A stretch of DNA of 42,262 bases. It comes from a virus (lineage: Duplodnaviria; Caudoviricetes). The position numbers and the translations under genes are program-made. The notes beneath the pieces are model-generated. The model saw only the letters and a program-made list of their open reading frames with translations. It did no database searches and was not told where the DNA came from. Positions 438 to 42,262 of the stretch are shown here, in pieces. The DNA lies in IMG/VR virus record IMGVR_UViG_3300025534_000017, positions 1 to 42,262 of that record. The stretch is one strand, 5' to 3'. Positions within the stretch are counted from its first letter, which is position 1; every line of letters starts with the position of its first letter.

Positions 438-630
438 GATCATCATCTTTCCATTTTCGATCCAAACACAGCTCATTCTTTAATCTGCTGTACTCAATAA
501 GCCATTCATCTGGCACCACACGCCCAGCATCCAAATATCGTTTCATTGCTTCCGTAATATCCTCAAACCTGAATTCTTTCCAAAGACGTTCCGGCAAAAG
601 ACCTTTAGGTGGTTTTTCATAGTGTTTCAT
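430..630 (-). CDS. Hypothetical phage protein
   Basis: ORF with RBS GAGGGGTG upstream of ATG 630; overlaps both neighbours. Confidence 0.7.
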   Translation of the reverse strand: MKHYEKPPKGLLPERLWKEFRFEDITEAMKRYLDAGRVVPDEWLIEYSRLKNELCLDRKWKDDDHV

Positions 631-1660
631 GGATTTCACCCCTCACTAATTTCAAATACGGGATCCCATCATACATATCCCGGAAGTCTATGATCTTCTT
701 CTGGTCTGGAAACAGAATCACCATCGGCTGCCTGATATCTCCTTTCGCTCCACCGACAGCCCATTGCGTATAGTCGTCCGTGATCTTGTATGAACCCGTC
801 CGGATCCAGACAGTATCCTTTCCAGCTTTCGTCTTCGCGTGGCTTTCGTTGAAATGCAAATGCCCCAAAGCGATGATATCGCCCTGGGTTTCATCAAATA
901 GCCTGCGCTGACTATTCGTCGTGTTCAGGGCACTGCTTCCGATGTAGCTGTGCCTGGCTATGATTTTGTACACCTGATTCCCCAGGCGAATATTGATTTC
1001 TCCGCCATACCACAAGTACGGCGATTCAATTTGCCGAGCGATGTATTTCACAAAATCCTCTCCAGTTTCCCTATAGGACCAATTGTCGTGATTACCTTTG
1101 AGGACTGCCAAATTCTTTTCCCCGAGGAACTCTTTGAAAAAATACATGATCAGTTCTTTTTGCCGATCCGGATTCTCAATCTGCTCGAACATACCGCCCT
1201 TATGGCTATTCTGGTTATAATTGTCCGCATAATCGCCCATCGTGATGTTGTATAGTCCTTCCGTCTCTTTCATGGTCCGGAAGTCTCTCAGCATTTCCTT
1301 GTGGGCTGTATAAAGTCCACCCACATGCCAATCACCCGTGAAAACTATGCCAATCGGCTTGTCATCATCGATATCGATGGTGACGGACGTTTGCCGATCA
1401 TCGAACTTTTGCAATTCTTCTTGGTGCTTGATTAACAAATCAAGATATTCTTCTATGCTATTCCCAACGTTTTTCCTGTCTTGAAATTCAATATTCTTTT
1501 TCCTCGTCCTTTTCAGTCTGCTTCTGACAGATTCATCAGTGAATGGTCTTCCGAATCTTTTTGCTAATTCTTCGGCAATTTCCCTATATGTCAATCCTTG
1601 TTCTCGTAGTTTTACTAGCGCTTCATGTTCTTCTTGGCTCCAATTCTCATACTTGGTCAA
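617..1660 (-). CDS. HTH + calcineurin-like metallophosphoesterase
   Basis: Motifs GDWH, MGD, GNHD, RH, GHLH; N-terminal HTH (GLTYREIAEEL). Start reassigned to TTG 1660 after RBS GGGTGGTGA. Confidence 0.85.
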   Translation of the reverse strand: MTKYENWSQEEHEALVKLREQGLTYREIAEELAKRFGRPFTDESVRSRLKRTRKKNIEFQDRKNVGNSIEEYLDLLIKHQEELQKFDDRQTSVTIDIDDDKPIGIVFTGDWHVGGLYTAHKEMLRDFRTMKETEGLYNITMGDYADNYNQNSHKGGMFEQIENPDRQKELIMYFFKEFLGEKNLAVLKGNHDNWSYRETGEDFVKYIARQIESPYLWYGGEINIRLGNQVYKIIARHSYIGSSALNTTNSQRRLFDETQGDIIALGHLHFNESHAKTKAGKDTVWIRTGSYKITDDYTQWAVGGAKGDIRQPMVILFPDQKKIIDFRDMYDGIPYLKLVRGEIHETL

Positions 1661-1675
1661 TCGATTCACCACCCT

Positions 1676-1825
1676 AACGGTAAACCCTGACATACATACC
1701 AGGGTAAAAGGCCTGTGACTTGGCGGGCAACGTAAACAAAACCACCCAAGGCCCATGCATGCACAGACCCTGGATGGTCGGTAGGGGCCTACTACCGGGT
1801 CTTGCCCGGGTTCAGTCCCGTTCAC
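1676..1825 (-). ncRNA. Putative structured RNA in the late-transcript leader
   Basis: Several nested stems; every deviation from perfect pairing in the two hairpins 1741-1778 and 1684-1705 is a G-U pair on the minus strand. Confidence 0.6.
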
Positions 1826-2507: not shown

Positions 2508-2523
2508 GTTCGCACCTCCAGCC

Positions 2524-2588
2524 AAAAGAAAAGGACACCAAACCATGCTTCGCATGGCTCAGTGTCCGTCGGTTCTTCCGTAAGGACA
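2524..2588 (-). terminator. Intrinsic terminator/attenuator with alternative hairpin
   Basis: GGACACTGAGCCATGC-GAA-GCATGGTTTGGTGTCC followed by TTTTCTTTT; an upstream TGTCC can sequester GGACA. Confidence 0.75.
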
Positions 2589-3341
2589 TTACATCATTTG
2601 CTTTATTTGAAGCCAAATGTCCGGATAGTATTTTTTTATAAATTCCCCATGCCCATGCCTCCATATTGCTTCCGAGGCCAAAAACGTCGGTTCGCTCCTA
2701 GTGCGTTCACGATCTTGCATGGGGTTGTCGTAGATTTTCAAATACGGAAGGTTGTTCTTAATGATATATGCCCATATGTCGTTTCCATCCCAACGATATA
2801 AAGGAGTACATGTCCAAACACTTCTATCTTTCGTTCGGTATAAATCTTTTTTCTTTGATAGGGCAAACATTCGGGTTTTAGATTCTTTCATTCTCAACCC
2901 TAAAAATTGCCCCTTCCATCTTCCCTCTATATATTCATTCATAACTTTTTTGTATTCATTAAGCATCCAATTCGTCCATTTTTTCTCGTCATCGGTTTTC
3001 GGCTCAACGAAAAAATACCCAACTTTTTCATATACATCAAAGGCACCTGGCAAATCAATGATATGGAGCCTTATATCGTATTTTTTTGCCATTTTCTTTG
3101 CCATTTCAATATTTTCTTTTGGGGTTTCCCGATATTTCCCAAAAAGCATGTCTTTTACATTTCCGTATTTGGCACAGAGATCAAGCAAAACAGTTGAATC
3201 CTTACCTCCAGAATAACAAACTACCCACCTATTTGTTTGTTCATAAGCTTTTTTAATTGAATTCATAGCTTCATTCACGCGTTTTCTATACACTGGTAGG
3301 TTTGCATAAAGTTGATACTTTTCTTTTTCGCTATCAGTCAT
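2589..3341 (-). CDS. cysH: CysH/PAPS-reductase-like adenine nucleotide alpha-hydrolase (type IV-B associated)
   Basis: PP-loop YSGGKDS, GLRMKES, PLYRWDGNDIWAYI, LPYLKIYD; start 3341 overlaps the csf3 stop (ATGA). Confidence 0.85.
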   Translation of the reverse strand: MTDSEKEKYQLYANLPVYRKRVNEAMNSIKKAYEQTNRWVVCYSGGKDSTVLLDLCAKYGNVKDMLFGKYRETPKENIEMAKKMAKKYDIRLHIIDLPGAFDVYEKVGYFFVEPKTDDEKKWTNWMLNEYKKVMNEYIEGRWKGQFLGLRMKESKTRMFALSKKKDLYRTKDRSVWTCTPLYRWDGNDIWAYIIKNNLPYLKIYDNPMQDRERTRSEPTFLASEAIWRHGHGEFIKKYYPDIWLQIKQMM

Positions 3342-4021
3342 ATAAGTTTTTCTCTCCTTACGTTCGGTATTATGCATGGAACCCGATCAATATGCAAATG
3401 GTAGGGAGGCTTCAGCCGCATTTTCCGGATTTGATAGGTTTGGCCATCATCCGGCAACTCTCCGGCAAAAGGCTTCGTCCGCATAATCCCGTATGGCCCA
3501 TAGTCCGTATAGTCTTCTGCGATCTCTTCAATTTTCCATTCCTTCACATATCCATATCCTTGCGATCCCTTTTTTCCGATGTTCGTTACAAGACTCAGAA
3601 GGCCGCGAATTCCATCCGGATCCCCAACGCAATAGAATTCGATGTCGCTTACTATTCGAATTAGTTGCGGAACTCTATATGATTTAAATTCCCCAGCTTG
3701 AGAATTGATTTTCCCGCGTTTTCCTTGAAAATCGACATAAATGGCCGCATCGAAATCGTTGATTTTCTTATGCCAATACTCCACGGTTTCGGCGTATTGG
3801 ACATAAAATCCAACCGAAGCTTTCCATCTCCCATCCTGGTCCTTCGCAAGAGGTAAGTCAGGTTCGATGATGTTCTCCATCCTTAAATCCCGGTTTTGCA
3901 AAATATCGGGATGATGGACCAGCATCCAGGCATAGGCCAGGATGCTGTCCAAATTGAATAGGCCATCATTGGAATTGACCCGTCCATCGAGCAATTTTGC
4001 GGTGATCTTGAGATTTTTCAT
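3338..4021 (-). CDS. csf3: Type IV CRISPR Cas5-family RAMP Csf3
   Basis: LDSILAYA near N-terminus, G-rich loop IGKKGSQGYGYV, C-terminal RLKPPY; follows csf2. Confidence 0.8.
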   Translation of the reverse strand: MKNLKITAKLLDGRVNSNDGLFNLDSILAYAWMLVHHPDILQNRDLRMENIIEPDLPLAKDQDGRWKASVGFYVQYAETVEYWHKKINDFDAAIYVDFQGKRGKINSQAGEFKSYRVPQLIRIVSDIEFYCVGDPDGIRGLLSLVTNIGKKGSQGYGYVKEWKIEEIAEDYTDYGPYGIMRTKPFAGELPDDGQTYQIRKMRLKPPYHLHIDRVPCIIPNVRREKLI

Positions 4022-4974
4022 TTCACTTCACCCGAAAGTAGCTTCGTAAACTCAGTCTTGTTTTCGATCAGGTAATTGTCGTAGATTTCCCGCAAATGTT
4101 CATCGTACCGTTGTTTTGCCTCGTTGGCCACCGGTCCGAGCTGAATGAATTCCTGGCCAATTTGGGCAAAGGGTTCCCGACCCTTTTCCGTGATCAGTTC
4201 CATATCCGCGGCAACAAGGCCAAAACCCTTTCCACTCATCCCGCCAAGATACGGCTGTTTCTGCCATTCATGAATAGCCGATACGAACGCGCCAAGTTCC
4301 AATTCCGTGCAGATGATGTCCCAACGGTGCCAAAGTTTTGCCCCGGGAGCCAGATATTCCACGCCATACCGCATTTGGGTTGCCGGCTCTTTGTTTTTCT
4401 TTTTCTCTTTTTCCCCGCCCTCAAGCAGCTTCACATCCGGGTCATAGAGATATAGTTCAGAAAGGTTCACATTCTTCTCATCATCTTTCCGAGAAAACTC
4501 AATCACATTCGTAAAATGGCGCCAGCTGTAATCTGATTTCTCGACATACGACGGGAGAATATCGTTTGTTTCTTTGCAAATCGGATAGGCGAACGTTTGT
4601 TTCAGTTTCCCGTCGAGGATCTGGTTTCCGACTCCGCCGCCGAAAAGGCTGACGAATGGCAATGCTTTTCGGATAAGCCGTGCCTGGTCGATGTCCAGGC
4701 TTTGGGCCCCGCCGATGGAGCCCCCGCTGAAAAGCAGGTGGAAAGCCTTCAGCGGCACTTGGATGCCGAGCCTGTCCAACAAATATCTGGCGCCGCAGTC
4801 CCTCAACATCCCCCGGATAGCATTTCCGCTATACACGAAGCATTCTACCGGTTCGCCGTTGCTGACTATGGTTGTCGTGTTCAAAAAGGATTGCGTCGAT
4901 TCGCTTTCTCCAATATGGGAAAGCGGTTGGAGCAGCGTATAGATCGTTTCAATTCGATAATGTTTCATTTCCAT
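4018..4974 (-). CDS. csf2: Type IV CRISPR Cas7-family backbone RAMP Csf2
   Basis: PLSHIGE, YSGNAIRGMLRD, LFSGG, SLFGG..GKL, EYLAPG, G-loop LGGMSGKGFG. Confidence 0.88.
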   Translation of the reverse strand: MEMKHYRIETIYTLLQPLSHIGESESTQSFLNTTTIVSNGEPVECFVYSGNAIRGMLRDCGARYLLDRLGIQVPLKAFHLLFSGGSIGGAQSLDIDQARLIRKALPFVSLFGGGVGNQILDGKLKQTFAYPICKETNDILPSYVEKSDYSWRHFTNVIEFSRKDDEKNVNLSELYLYDPDVKLLEGGEKEKKKNKEPATQMRYGVEYLAPGAKLWHRWDIICTELELGAFVSAIHEWQKQPYLGGMSGKGFGLVAADMELITEKGREPFAQIGQEFIQLGPVANEAKQRYDEHLREIYDNYLIENKTEFTKLLSGEVK

Positions 4975-5434
4975 TTTCTTCACCCTCCACAATAAGTTCT
5001 AATTTGGCTTCAATCGGTTTTTCCCGTTCCAGACGATCGCGGACAAGCATAATGACCCGAGCTGTTTCCTTGTATAGCTGATAGAGGATCTCCTGATCCT
5101 TCCCACTTTCGATAATCTCGGTCAGGAATTGGCGGCCCTTCTCACCGCTGACCACAATGTTCCCTTGCCCATCCTCGTATGCGGCCATGATTGGCGTACC
5201 ACTGTCACACCATTTGGGATTGATTGATTCGCAAGCCATTTTCCGCTTGAAAGTTTCTAGAAAAGTTCCAATGCTAGTTGCTCGTTTTGCGCTGACTTTG
5301 GTAAATCGCTCAATTTGTCCCCACATGTCCGGTCCGCTTGGGCCCCGGTTCCGGTTTCTGCTCCTGTAGACGGCATAGACGATGAGGGCCGCAGCGGCTG
5401 CATGTTCATCTTGAGTTCGGAATCCATATAGCAT
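4949..5434 (-). CDS. Putative type IV-B small subunit (Cas11-like)
   Basis: 161-aa apparently helical protein between csf1 and csf2, the canonical cas11 slot; RBS AAGGAGG; called by position. Confidence 0.65.
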   Translation of the reverse strand: MLYGFRTQDEHAAAAALIVYAVYRSRNRNRGPSGPDMWGQIERFTKVSAKRATSIGTFLETFKRKMACESINPKWCDSGTPIMAAYEDGQGNIVVSGEKGRQFLTEIIESGKDQEILYQLYKETARVIMLVRDRLEREKPIEAKLELIVEGEENGNETLSN

Positions 5435-6168
5435 ACCAATTCCTCCTTGCTTTCAATCTTTTTTGCAACGAATAAGGCGACTTCTAAAATTGGATTCTTC
5501 CGAAACGGCTTGACTTTGTCCTCGAATGCCTCCCAGGCCTCGAGGCCAAAGTCTAATATCCGCTTTTGGTTGTATTCACCGGTCAAGATTTCTGTTTTCG
5601 TAAATCCATAGAGGAAATGCTCGACCAATTGCAGCAGTTTTCCGAATCCCTTTCTTTCGATCAACACCGGCATTTCCTCAAACATAACCGTGAATACATC
5701 GCGGGAATAATTCACTTCCCCTTTGAAAGCGATATGCTTCTTCTGCGACACGGCGATGTTGATCACGAAAGGCGGGTCCGGGGGATTGAGAAGGAACCCC
5801 CGTAGTTCTTCACGGTTTGGAAGGTACAGCCTTTCGTGGTTTGCCACATGCGAAAAATTCCGCAGGGCATGCCGCTCAGGGCTGGTTAGAATGGTAAAGC
5901 AGCATGCCGGGCATACATGGGTAGACGTTCGGCATTTTCCGGCGTTCCAGTCAGTGAAAACATTGGAAAATATCTTTTTCAATTTCATGCCGTGTTTGGT
6001 CGGCTCACCGCACAAGTAGCAATATCCTTCGAATGGCTCCATATCAGGATGTTTCATCGGATCCAAAAGGTTGACTTCTCTTTGAACGGGATTCCCCTTT
6101 TCATCTTTCGTATTCTGAATGATTCTCCCGGTCCTCTTCCACGCTTCATAAATCAGATGCGTAGGCAC
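5257..6168 (-). CDS. csf1: Type IV CRISPR large subunit Csf1 (Cas8-like, Zn finger)
   Basis: CYLCG...FTDW...VCPACC zinc finger and LLNPPDPPFV...SQKKH motif. Confidence 0.8.
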   Translation of the reverse strand: MPTHLIYEAWKRTGRIIQNTKDEKGNPVQREVNLLDPMKHPDMEPFEGYCYLCGEPTKHGMKLKKIFSNVFTDWNAGKCRTSTHVCPACCFTILTSPERHALRNFSHVANHERLYLPNREELRGFLLNPPDPPFVINIAVSQKKHIAFKGEVNYSRDVFTVMFEEMPVLIERKGFGKLLQLVEHFLYGFTKTEILTGEYNQKRILDFGLEAWEAFEDKVKPFRKNPILEVALFVAKKIESKEELVCYMDSELKMNMQPLRPSSSMPSTGAETGTGAQADRTCGDKLSDLPKSAQNEQLALELF

Positions 6169-6566
6169 TCCCTACACCTCCCTTCCAACCGGATTTCCCG
6201 GCGCCGCGAGTTCCACTCCAAAAAACCCAATCTTTCGAGGTTTCGGATATGAAAATGTACCCCACTAACCGGTATTTCAAGGGCCCGGGCGATTTCTGAC
6301 AAGTTTGGTGATTTTTTGTTCCTCTGTTGGTAGTGAGCGATATAACGTAGAACACGGAGTCTCCTTGGCGTCAGTTCCTGTTTCCAACTAGTAGGTATAT
6401 TGAATTTGTCCAGTATCCGATATGCTTTCCATATACTGATTTCCAGTCTTTCGGCCAATTCCCGGATGCTCAATCCCTGGTCAATATACATGTAGATGAT
6501 GTCTGATTTTGAAAACACACACCTGCCAATTTTGATTTCGGTATACGGATTGATTGGGTCCCTCAT
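6153..6566 (-). CDS. Double DNA-binding-domain protein (HTH + LexA-type winged helix, no peptidase)
   Basis: GLSIRELAERLEIS; LTPRRLRVLRYI...SPNLSEIARAL..SGVHFHIRNLERLGFL. Confidence 0.75.
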   Translation of the reverse strand: MRDPINPYTEIKIGRCVFSKSDIIYMYIDQGLSIRELAERLEISIWKAYRILDKFNIPTSWKQELTPRRLRVLRYIAHYQQRNKKSPNLSEIARALEIPVSGVHFHIRNLERLGFLEWNSRRREIRLEGRCRECLRI

Positions 6567-9097: not shown

Positions 9098-9467
9098 CTT
9101 CCTGAAATATATTGCCGATCACTTTTCCTTTATTTACAACCGAAACAAGGTCGTCTAAACAAAATTTTTCGCCTATATTTTGTTCATGAAGGTAAAAACA
9201 AGCACATTCGTTATCCCATTTAACAACCCAATGATATAAACCGTCGTCATATTCTTCGATGATATCCCCCTCATATATCTCCCGCCCGTTTCGATCGTGG
9301 AGGCCGGTGTATTGCATGAATTCATATGAAGAATCATTCAACAGTGCGTTAATCATCTCTATTTCTGATCCAAGCACTCCATCCCAATAATCAGCACTCT
9401 CATTTTCGTTTCGATAAACCATGATTCGTTTTCTTTTATCCCATGCACGGAATTTAATATCTCTCAT
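9054..9467 (-). CDS. YopX family protein
   Basis: MRDIKFRAWDK...MQYTGLHDRNGREIYEGDII...VIGNIF. Confidence 0.9.
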   Translation of the reverse strand: MRDIKFRAWDKRKRIMVYRNENESADYWDGVLGSEIEMINALLNDSSYEFMQYTGLHDRNGREIYEGDIIEEYDDGLYHWVVKWDNECACFYLHEQNIGEKFCLDDLVSVVNKGKVIGNIFQEGDLLDSEISKVDRD

Positions 9468-10729
9468 TTTTTACCCTCCAACAACTCGGGATTTTCAAAC
9501 ACATTCACCGCTTTTATAAGTGCTAGTAACGGTTGTGTGCGTTCGTCTAGTACATCAACATTTTCGCGCAAAGATTTAACGTCAATGTAAATCTGCTCGA
9601 TATCCAATCGGTGATTATGCGACTGATGGCGCAACTCTTTGTTTTCGCGTTCTAACTTTGTCACCCGTCGTGCTAAATTGGCGAGTAGGTCGATGGCAGA
9701 TTCGTCCACCGATAGCATGTTGTCGGTTGTTTTCGGCAATTCGTCATCAGCTTTCACGCAGTCTACAGAACAATTTTCGCAAGTGTGTAACGGTTCGAGG
9801 ACGTAATAATAAAATCGACCAACGCACCATTTCCCATCGCCATAAACACGTTTGTTTTCGTTAAAATCAGCAAAAACATCTCCGTTGCTGTCGACTTCTT
9901 CTACGATAGCTATTTCGCCGATTTTGAACCAATCACGATATTCGAGGTTTTTAACGATGATAATTTTATCACCCACTTTTGCCTCACGATCAACCATCCG
10001 ATAACGCTTGCCATCGATACGAACGATATCGGTCGGTTCCAAAACAAAGTAATCTCGATGATGTATACGCTGTCGTGTATCGGTTTCGATCAAACTGCTG
10101 AATACATTTAACACTGTATAAATATTTCCCGTATTCTTTCCGATGATCTTTTCGCCAGCATTGGCTTTCCGCTCGACTTCGATATATTCACGTAAAATAC
10201 CATTCAGCTTTTCGTCTGGCAGTGCGAGTAGATCAAGTACCGATTTAGGCGCTTCATCTTTTTCTGCTAGCGGTTCGAGGACACGGTAATCTTCACTTGA
10301 CGCTGCGTAATTTCTCATGTCTTTTCCTACGTAACTAATAGCATCATTAACTTTATAGACATCATCAACCTTAAAAACTCCGTTTCCGTTTTCGTTTGAA
10401 TGACCGAATACAATAACCGTTTCACCCTCTTTCGCCTTGCGGTCGATCATCCGATAGCGTTTGCCATCAACATGTACGATGTCGGTAGGTTCGAGCGTTT
10501 GATATTCGCTTTGTTCGATTATGTCAAACTTTCCGCAGTAAACGTCACCGTCTTCGTTTGCTTTCTCAACCGACATGATTGTACCTTTCGTATAGCTATC
10601 TCCGAATTGACATTCGTGAGGGTTGACGATAACGATTTTATCGCCGACATTTGCTTCGCGATCAACCTCGACATATTCTCGCAACACACCGCCCAAATTT
10701 TCGTCTGGTAGAACGTGGATTTTACTCAT
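9464..10729 (-). CDS. Hypothetical protein with internal tandem domain duplication and C-terminal coiled coil
   Basis: Two copies of LPDE.L.G.LREY.EV.R.A...EPTDIV..DGKRYRM.DR.AK. Confidence 0.8.
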   Translation of the reverse strand: MSKIHVLPDENLGGVLREYVEVDREANVGDKIVIVNPHECQFGDSYTKGTIMSVEKANEDGDVYCGKFDIIEQSEYQTLEPTDIVHVDGKRYRMIDRKAKEGETVIVFGHSNENGNGVFKVDDVYKVNDAISYVGKDMRNYAASSEDYRVLEPLAEKDEAPKSVLDLLALPDEKLNGILREYIEVERKANAGEKIIGKNTGNIYTVLNVFSSLIETDTRQRIHHRDYFVLEPTDIVRIDGKRYRMVDREAKVGDKIIIVKNLEYRDWFKIGEIAIVEEVDSNGDVFADFNENKRVYGDGKWCVGRFYYYVLEPLHTCENCSVDCVKADDELPKTTDNMLSVDESAIDLLANLARRVTKLERENKELRHQSHNHRLDIEQIYIDVKSLRENVDVLDERTQPLLALIKAVNVFENPELLEGKK

Positions 10730-21736: not shown

Positions 21737-21794
21737 TTGACTGATAGGAATTCATATCGTATTATAGAATCAGAAGATGATAGGAATTCAAATC
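21737..21794 (+). promoter_or_regulatory. Strong SigA-type promoter with two palindromic operators
   Basis: TTGACT-17-TATTAT with an A/T-rich upstream tract; GATAGGAATTCATATC (21743-21758) and GATAGGAATTCAAATC (21779-21794). Confidence 0.8.
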
Positions 21795-21812
21795 ATGGAG
21801 GGAAGGAAAAAA

Positions 21813-22538
21813 ATGAAAGTTGCCGAGTTCGTTAAAGATGTGAAAGGTAAGAAAGTGATTTTCAAGGTTTTGGTCGATGATCAAACGATCGTCTTGGATG
21901 TGAATGGGGTGCAAGGTACTGCAATTGTCGGAAAACACCCGCAACACGGGTGGTATTACCAAAGTTATTCTGACGAGCTATTAACAGCATTAAGAATCAA
22001 AGCATCCAATGTTGCGATTACACATGAAAGTGCAGAAAAGGCGGCGGAAATTATTGCCCAACGAAAAGAAGAGGCAAAAAAAGAAGCGGAACGGAAACGC
22101 GAGGAAGAAAAGCAACGCATCATCACTGGCAAACAAAAAATTAAAGTACATTTCCACGATGGCGAGTATCTTTCGGGGTGGGAAGTTGTTGGCGTTGCGG
22201 CGGACCTCTTGAAGGAACTCGGATTGGCCCGATATGTGTCGGGCTGGGGGATGATCGTTGATAGTGAACTTGTCAACCGGTTTGGCGACGAGTTCACCTA
22301 TCAACAAGCAAAAGAAGTTGCAGATCCACGAATAAAGGCAAAAAAAGAAAAAGAAGAAGCCCAAAAACGGATCCTGCAGGCAAAGTTTGATGAAGCCAAG
22401 AAAACCGGAAAGCCGGTAGAAATCTCCCGATGGACGGAAGAATGCAGCGATCCAGAGGAAGAATGCGATCTCGACATCGTTGTAGAATACGCGATGCCGG
22501 ACGGATCGACAAAAGTTGAACGACATCATACATGGTAG
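21813..22538 (+). CDS. Hypothetical accessory protein
   Basis: RBS GGAGGGAAGG; start reassigned to MKVAEF. Confidence 0.8.
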   Translation: MKVAEFVKDVKGKKVIFKVLVDDQTIVLDVNGVQGTAIVGKHPQHGWYYQSYSDELLTALRIKASNVAITHESAEKAAEIIAQRKEEAKKEAERKREEEKQRIITGKQKIKVHFHDGEYLSGWEVVGVAADLLKELGLARYVSGWGMIVDSELVNRFGDEFTYQQAKEVADPRIKAKKEKEEAQKRILQAKFDEAKKTGKPVEISRWTEECSDPEEECDLDIVVEYAMPDGSTKVERHHTW

Positions 22539-42240: not shown

Positions 42241-42262
42241 GCGAAAAAAATTCGCGCCGCGG
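42241..42262. other. Probable cos site at the window end
   Basis: GC-rich CGCGCCGCGG terminus upstream of terS; joins position 1 just downstream of the HNH gene. Confidence 0.55.

Follow-up and report, generated by a model that had tools for sequence, protein, structure and literature searches.

A type IV-B CRISPR-Cas module in a temperate Bacillaceae-type phage: a clamp-type Csf1 tail read out of frame and an exchangeable enzyme slot

The csf module and the Csf1 tail

The window analyzed in this study is the whole of virus record IMGVR_UViG_3300025534_000017, which at 42,262 nucleotides is complete (CheckV 100%) and carries, at positions 2589–6168, a CRISPR-Cas module of subtype IV-B, a subtype for which, to our knowledge, no function has been established. 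Five overlapping, co-oriented open reading frames (ORFs), all on the minus strand, fill this region in the order csf1-cas11-csf2-csf3-cysH-like. The csf1 gene (5257–6168) encodes a Cas8-like large subunit of 303 residues, the first 255 of which were searched and match the PADLOC model Csf1_0_IV (E=1.5e-41); its zinc-finger cysteines C50/C53/C86/C89 are invariant or nearly so across 14 kin. The small subunit is encoded by cas11 (4949–5434, 161 residues; Cas11_2_IV, E=4.5e-40), for which a sequence search against the PDB gave no match. The Cas7 backbone gene csf2 (4018–4974; Csf2_0_IV, E=3.7e-68) lies in an ORF that extends to 4992, but its start is most likely at 4974, giving the 318 residues found in near-identical cluster members. 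The csf3 gene (3338–4021, 227 residues; Csf3_0_IV, E=1.8e-38) encodes a Cas5-like repeat-associated mysterious protein whose conserved glycine loop, G149/G155/G157, is invariant in 25 homologs. NCBIfam models for Csf1, Csf2 (TIGR03115) and Csf3 also match, at scores below the curated cut-offs. The fifth gene (2589–3341), which most likely starts at 3341, where there is a ribosome-binding site and an ATGA overlap, encodes a CysH-like PP-loop enzyme of 250 residues that matches PF01507 above the cut-off and has an intact SGGKDS sequence.

By every feature tested the module is a member of subtype IV-B. These genes define the subtype, which some prophages carry (PMC8175902, PMC7038947, PMC11656645). 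The initial annotation, made from the letters alone, had named the five genes, the zinc finger, the Cas7-type and Cas5-type proteins and the PP-loop enzyme, and the profile searches bear it out, with PADLOC type IV models matching all four Csf/Cas11 genes. It had also reported that cas6, cas1/2, dinG and an array are lacking; correspondingly, a Pfam scan of 58 window ORFs, covering some but not all of the small ones, found no Cas6, Cas1/2, DinG or RecD, and no repeat-spacer array was detected in the window. The same Pfam library did detect Cas6 in relatives. Subtype IV-B characteristically lacks arrays, adaptation genes and DinG/RecD, and in most cases Cas6 as well. Among the scanned ORFs there is neither the DinG that with an array marks IV-A, nor the Cas10-like HD subunit of IV-C, nor the RecD helicase of IV-D. 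The best PDB match of the Csf2 profile is nevertheless Cas7c of the IV-C effector (11FS, E=2.9e-25; related entries 11HC and 11HD), ahead of Csf2 in 7JHY (E=6.6e-18), whereas the match of Csf1 to Cas10IVc is confined to the zinc finger (E=0.1).

The structurally characterized IV-B complex of Mycobacterium sp. JS623 (PDB 7JHY) shares csf1-cas11-csf2-csf3 with the window and likewise has no array, Cas6 or helicase (PMC7937560); JS623 is the only case in which a Csf2/Cas11 ribonucleoprotein filament is known. The window also has the cysH-like gene typical of IV-B, and reviews name the CysH link as key to the subtype (PMC8175902, PMC7038947). The JS623 module lies on a megaplasmid and that of the window in a phage early operon, and the window further differs in its out-of-frame, clamp-type Csf1 tail and in having close kin with Cas6 and with other enzymes in the slot occupied here by CysH. 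The same five genes are found in the viral IV-B modules already in print, those of Fuxiviridae (PMC10848311) and of the Methanoperedens virus Mp_virus_41kb (10.1101/2023.08.02.551345), and in Skermania phage SPI1 (orf40-44, KR011061), the only match to a Csf2 search of 50,697 GenBank phages; IMG/VR yielded 70 loci. Unlike these viruses, the window phage is of the temperate Bacillaceae type; a mini-array is described for Fuxivirus and there is none in the window, and SPI1 Csf1 lacks the clamp-type tail. The finding of the initial annotation is thus not new as written, because phage-borne IV-B and the two functions it proposed, a sponge for CRISPR RNA (crRNA) and recruitment of CysH to nucleic acid, are published (PMC8175902, PMC7038947, PMC7937560). 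What the present analysis adds is the Csf1 tail, the swapping of enzymes in the slot and the alternation with ParB-like proteins; the first of these, and the cas6 of close relatives, had been missed.

The last 59 csf1 codons overlap the 5' portion of cas11 in a different frame, forming a dual-coding stretch of 178 nucleotides (5257–5434) that is also found in close kin. At its end is the peptide QLALELF (5260–5280), in which QLALEL fits the hexameric β-clamp-binding motif Q-phi-x-[L/M]-x-[F/L] (PMC11139829). When Q-phi-x-[L/M]-[F/L] or the hexameric form was scored within the last 14 residues, the motif was found in 29 of 112 Csf1 proteins from distinct loci and in all 11 of the close clade (the window copy and near-duplicates counted), as compared with 0/119 Cas11, 1/128 Csf2, 7/111 Csf3, 0/90 CysH and 9/1377 other ORFs. 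Among 54 proteins of the window, Csf1 alone ends in this way. Synonymous recoding of cas11 in the window copy (L099), repeated 3000 times, left the overlapping frame with a terminal motif in 0.9% of cases (P=0.009), and in other clades the motif is built in different overlap registers (55 nucleotides, or 173–194 nucleotides in the other frame) or in tails that do not overlap. This rarity under recoding, together with the three overlap registers and the non-overlapping tails, argues for maintenance of the motif by selection. As judged from its sequence, the module is accordingly a IV-B variant distinguished by a clamp-type Csf1 tail.

The enzyme slot and its proposed alternative partners

Reductases of the CysH group, which act on phosphoadenylyl or adenylyl sulfate (PAPS/APS), and DndC have a C-terminal catalytic cysteine motif or an iron-sulfur cysteine set. 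Homologs of the window CysH conserve the PP-loop SGGKDS and a G-x-R-x-x-E-S-x-x-R segment, but none of 83 aligned sequences has the ECG[LI]H or CC...CxxC motif, and the cysteines of the window protein fall outside conserved columns. The cysteine pattern therefore places the enzyme outside the PAPS/APS reductase and DndC groups, as far as sequence can tell; a match to DndC covers ~37 residues. A predicted structure (mean predicted local distance difference test score, pLDDT, 94) gave TtuA, APS/PAPS reductases and LarE as top Foldseek folds, and sequence matches include CysD, FAD synthase and Cap9. From its family, the enzyme is likely to adenylate a substrate. It has only 22–35% identity to the CysH of the close kin fetched but 44–47% to that of loci with distant Csf2, and the six best viral matches of its subfamily are all csf-linked.

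A total of 177 csf2 loci were fetched, of which 127 were distinct at 95% Csf2 identity; omission of 43 loci without csf3 or with less than 1.8 kb of DNA downstream left 84 full loci, a sample that is biased toward phages. In these the slot holds CysH in 76, a protein with tRNA-guanine transglycosylase (TGT) motifs in 4 and a radical S-adenosylmethionine (SAM) protein in 4; none is empty and none has two of these enzymes. When the TGT-motif family was searched without reference to Cas genes, all 19 viral loci (including 4 seeds and, among the 19, two near-duplicates) were in csf modules, and no cysH was detected in any of the 19. A sequence search of this family against the PDB gave nothing significant, and it is placed by fold search only: its model (pLDDT 96) resembles Cap10 and tRNA-guanine transglycosylases, weakly (E ~2e-5) and at 11–14% identity. 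In the reverse search with radical SAM, csf genes were present in all 8 of the closest loci and in 4 of the 35 that were more distant (3 of these 12 being seeds).

The starred branches of a Csf2 tree with 125 rows force at least 7 TGT and at least 10 radical SAM label changes. Recent swaps are indicated by pairs in which Csf2 is nearly identical and CysH divergent (95% and 24% identity for L002/L004, 96% and 34% for L007/L008) and by L102, in which a 20-codon remnant of a cysH start precedes the TGT gene. By these comparisons the slot is a swappable cassette that has been exchanged repeatedly among relatives. Duplicated csf1-csf3 pairs in L097, L154 and L037, the second of which also has two cysH genes, suggest that exchange involves whole sets of end-cap subunits and enzymes. 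In two modules a gene for an unannotated protein of 306–308 residues lies 5' of the TGT-fold gene (L195:4024-4944, L203:4066-4992), and L203 has in addition a Cas6f (Csy4) homolog (L203:5654-6136). Beside cysH in 7 of the 84 modules is a hydrophobic, membrane-like protein of ~320 residues (L074:13030-13995, L022:11040, L113:5698, L154:7297), which we take to resemble a solute transporter; that of L074, the one searched, had no Pfam or PHROG match.

Enzymes of the same families also occur apart from csf genes. A scan with the window CysH subfamily gave, among the matches listed, at least 68 loci, of which 8 (including the six best) are csf-linked and 60 csf-free. A ParB-like gene was present in the fetched flanks of 40 of these 60 listed csf-free phage loci, as compared with 6 of the 76 CysH loci that are csf-linked and 1 of 8 controls at unrelated loci. 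For radical SAM, such a gene lay directly upstream in 9 of 30 csf-free versus 0 of 12 csf-linked loci; these counts come from a home-made ParB profile with eight seeds, four of them Pfam-confirmed, and include several near-duplicate loci. Such alternation suggests that the same enzymes have either the Cas complex or a ParB-like protein as partner, and both kinds of partner may serve to bring them to DNA, in which case the phage genes that link ParB to PAPS-reductase-like proteins would be a comparison for how the window CysH works. In L204 (3536-9870), csf1-QueC-TGT-fold-cas11-csf2-csf3 is followed by a phage β-clamp (DnaN) gene and a ParB-like gene; Csf1 of L204 has no clamp motif. No literature linking IV-B to radical SAM, transglycosylase, a sliding clamp, DNA modification or ParB was found in the texts searched, and delivery of a modifying enzyme by a Cas complex is not described in them.

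Function of the module

As our leading, though tentative, reading, a Cas scaffold tethered to the clamp would deliver a swappable base-modifying enzyme to replicating phage DNA. Csf1, Cas11, Csf2 and Csf3 would assemble on RNA that is probably not sequence-specific, because no guide was found. A phage that has an initiator and a helicase and, among the 58 scanned ORFs, no DNA polymerase would use the host polymerase and clamp at its forks, and the Csf1 tail may bind this host clamp. The complex, presumably expressed early, would contact the PP-loop enzyme and bring it to newly replicated phage DNA, which is its putative substrate. There the enzyme would add a protective base modification, perhaps by adenylation followed by reaction with an unspecified nucleophile, a chemistry guessed from the fold, and the product could shield the DNA from restriction or CRISPR nucleases. 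The protection step would have a parallel in phages in which DpdA/TGT enzymes insert 7-deazaguanines into the DNA and so block restriction (PMC6884629). The likeness may extend to the encoding of a modifying enzyme before the packaging genes and to the TGT-fold proteins in the slot of relatives, whereas the window itself has a PP-loop enzyme and neither DpdA nor preQ0 genes. Among restriction sites counted in the window, CGCG and GTAC are mildly depleted, to a degree that is uninformative.

A wider form of this proposal, which is possible but distinctly more doubtful, makes IV-B in general an adaptor at the replication fork, in which a clamp-tethered Cas7 filament takes the place of ParB-like proteins and PP-loop, TGT-fold or radical SAM writers can be exchanged on it, so that each phage lineage would have its own protective base, here an undescribed modification made by the PP-loop enzyme. 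If correct, a Cas complex would have been repurposed for writing bases rather than cutting, and such modules would be a source of new DNA-modification chemistry. The locus offers a testable lead on IV-B function, and experiments are feasible because close relatives exist as prophages in cultured, non-pathogenic Bacillaceae, among them Weizmannia/Heyndrickxia and Aeribacillus lysogens.

No candidate for a phage-encoded guide RNA was found by searches for repeats, for shared intergenic sequence or for host-type repeats. In a two-copy repeat search of the window and the 127 distinct loci, the only CRISPR-like repeats were those of L110, at a contig edge, and of L131 and L084, 6–10 kb away; none of the Cas6-bearing modules adjoins an array. 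The repeats of L110 (L110:34-132) are two of I-C-like type ~830 nucleotides upstream of csf2, and those of L131 (L131:19-413) form a 7-repeat array directly beside the start of the csf-bearing element. When 471 intergenic stretches were compared all against all, distant loci proved to share no element linked to the module. The window was matched by host-type repeats no more closely than shuffled sequence was, and Rfam and ARAGORN found no structured RNA or tRNA in the window. Cas6 or Cas6e is nonetheless present in 20 of the 84 loci, more than the 12 instances reported as rare exceptions in IV-B (PMC7038947), although the present sample is phage-biased. The other 64 loci are without it. It occurs in all 8 other members of the clade with 99 support to which the window belongs, so the window has probably lost cas6 or had it replaced together with cysH.

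Several observations weigh against delivery to DNA. The clamp cannot be a universal requirement, because the motif is missing from 83 of 112 Csf1 proteins, including those of 3 of 4 TGT loci, 4 of 5 radical SAM loci and phage SPI1, and the window has the hexameric form, a stronger QLELF being found in some kin. A single, fixed protein interface would hardly be expected to allow such rapid exchange of unrelated folds. The frequency of Cas6, and its presence throughout the rest of the window's clade, implies a specific RNA substrate that lies outside the proposal, and the one IV-B complex of known structure is similar to Csm, which targets RNA, and bound a mixture of RNAs without enriching crRNA (PMC7937560). 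The closest folds include a tRNA enzyme (TtuA) and a protein-modifying TGT (Cap10), so that the substrate may not be DNA. The Csf2 tree is the result of a quick search, with long branches and uncertain deep parts, the Fisher tests ignore relatedness, and the window CysH is 7 residues shorter at the C terminus than most homologs.

The initial annotation took the module to serve the phage rather than host immunity, and this view is upheld; of its two mechanisms, recruitment of CysH is favored by the slot swapping and the clamp motif, and a pure sponge is less so. That the slot is always filled, that three unrelated folds exchange in it and that Csf1 has a clamp-type motif together favor delivery over capture of host crRNAs by the complex, an anti-CRISPR function in which the enzyme would be secondary or would mark captured RNA and in which, in relatives, phage Cas6 would first cut host arrays. 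We regard capture as unlikely, although it is a published hypothesis and accords with the presence of Cas6 in 20 loci without an adjacent array. IV-B phages of this group clearly meet CRISPR: the hosts of three close prophages have Cas1, and spacers match csf1, cas11 and csf2 of kin. One such host (G001) has a type I-C system that appears intact, with cas3 as one intact ORF, and of its 83 spacers 9 match the resident IV-B prophage (8 perfectly, 8 with a TTC flank). In G002, in which 1 of 10 spacers matches the resident cas11, cas3 is split into two ORFs, and no self-match was present in the 3.3 kb of G003 examined. In a lysogen, however, a module that belongs to a lytic operon should not be expressed, so that a different anti-CRISPR (Acr) protein may account for the self-targeting in G001. 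Neither the clamp motif nor the constant presence of an enzyme would be required for a sponge. The G001 prophage, which also has cas6 (G001:C15 ~9000-59000, comprising L257, L072, L258 and L259, and L254), is a candidate Acr-bearing lysogen; small reverse-strand genes at its right end, including one for a Phage_Gp111-domain protein (L259:2330-2680), are Acr candidates.

Somewhat less probable again is delivery of the enzyme to RNA or protein, such as host tRNA, transcripts, or replisome or defense proteins, instead of phage DNA. The top fold of CysH is that of the tRNA thiolase TtuA, the TGT-fold protein resembles Cap10 of the Cap10-CdnD complex with its NDG modification, QueC and TGT occur together in L204, some modules have SpoU-like and Trm1-like methylase matches, and the backbone is Csm-like. 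Fold matches at 11–18% identity do not, however, assign a substrate, and DNA is the substrate suggested by both the clamp motif and the alternation with ParB. We give slightly less weight still to regulation or blocking of replication or transcription by a clamp-bound, possibly guided complex that stalls the forks of the host or a competitor or couples replication to late expression. The C protein of phage Mu works through the clamp in late transcription, helix-turn-helix (HTH) genes are in or beside 27 of the 84 modules, and in the window a terminator closes the module, shortly before the late activator; but a constant base-chemistry enzyme would be unexplained, no guide candidate was found, and related phages keep the block of terminator, small gene and sigma-like gene without the module, which indicates that it is dispensable there for late expression. 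It is very improbable that the window copy is a non-functional passenger in decay, having lost cas6 and the C terminus of CysH, because its five frames are open, their starts are coupled and invariant residues are retained, 64 of 84 loci likewise lack cas6, and the short CysH end is common to relatives at 86–87% identity. On the last ground a sequencing error was also rejected as the cause of the shortening.

Phage and genomic setting

The window encodes an integrase, a CI-like repressor, an antirepressor, a DnaD-like initiator, DnaB, lysis, tail and head proteins and a terminase and is a temperate tailed phage. The nearest relatives of its capsid and initiator are in Parageobacillus and Geobacillus phages (63%), and those with a name for Csf2 (83%) and CysH (86%) are in an Aeribacillus genome, from which a thermophilic member of the Bacillaceae is the likely host. 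As the initial annotation had it, the module is flanked by the replication genes (DnaD-like initiator, DnaB and RusA-like) on one side and a sigma-like late activator on the other. Its position among early genes agrees with the early operon that was claimed, whereas transcription of the module as one unit from the early promoter can only be inferred: there is no excess of promoter-like sites (37 versus 32.7 expected), and terminator-like hairpins intervene between that promoter and the module.

Directly upstream, and overlapping the csf1 start, is a minus-strand gene (6153–6566) for an accessory DNA-binding protein of 137 residues with two HTH motifs (HTH and LexA-type Pfam matches). A homolog is directly upstream of csf1 in L001, L002, L004, L006, L074 and L119 but not in L008, L072 or L102. 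At the other end, directly 3' of the cysH stop, is a terminator-like stem-loop (2533–2567, minus strand; z=-5.6), a general phage element. A pattern derived from it matched 8 other viral loci, of which none has csf genes in the fetched flanks and 7 can be aligned with the element of the window. This presence in phages that lack csf led to its rejection as a guide RNA. In its extended form with a T-run (2515–2590, minus strand) it precedes a small basic gene and the late activator, belongs to no Rfam family, is conserved in Bacillaceae-type phages with and without csf genes and may be a regulated terminator.

Three further genes of the window were noted. Between the late activator and an HNH gene, 617–1825 (minus strand) encodes an HTH/Myb-like N terminus fused to a calcineurin-like metallophosphoesterase (phrog_7339). 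In the lysogeny region, the product of 21777–22538 (plus strand) has a weak match to Exo5-type nucleases (PF09810, E=0.008) and could be a Cas4-like nuclease. A 421-residue early protein is encoded at 9464–10729 (minus strand) by a gene with internal repeats of 78–80 nucleotides (9960/10413 and 10145/10634).

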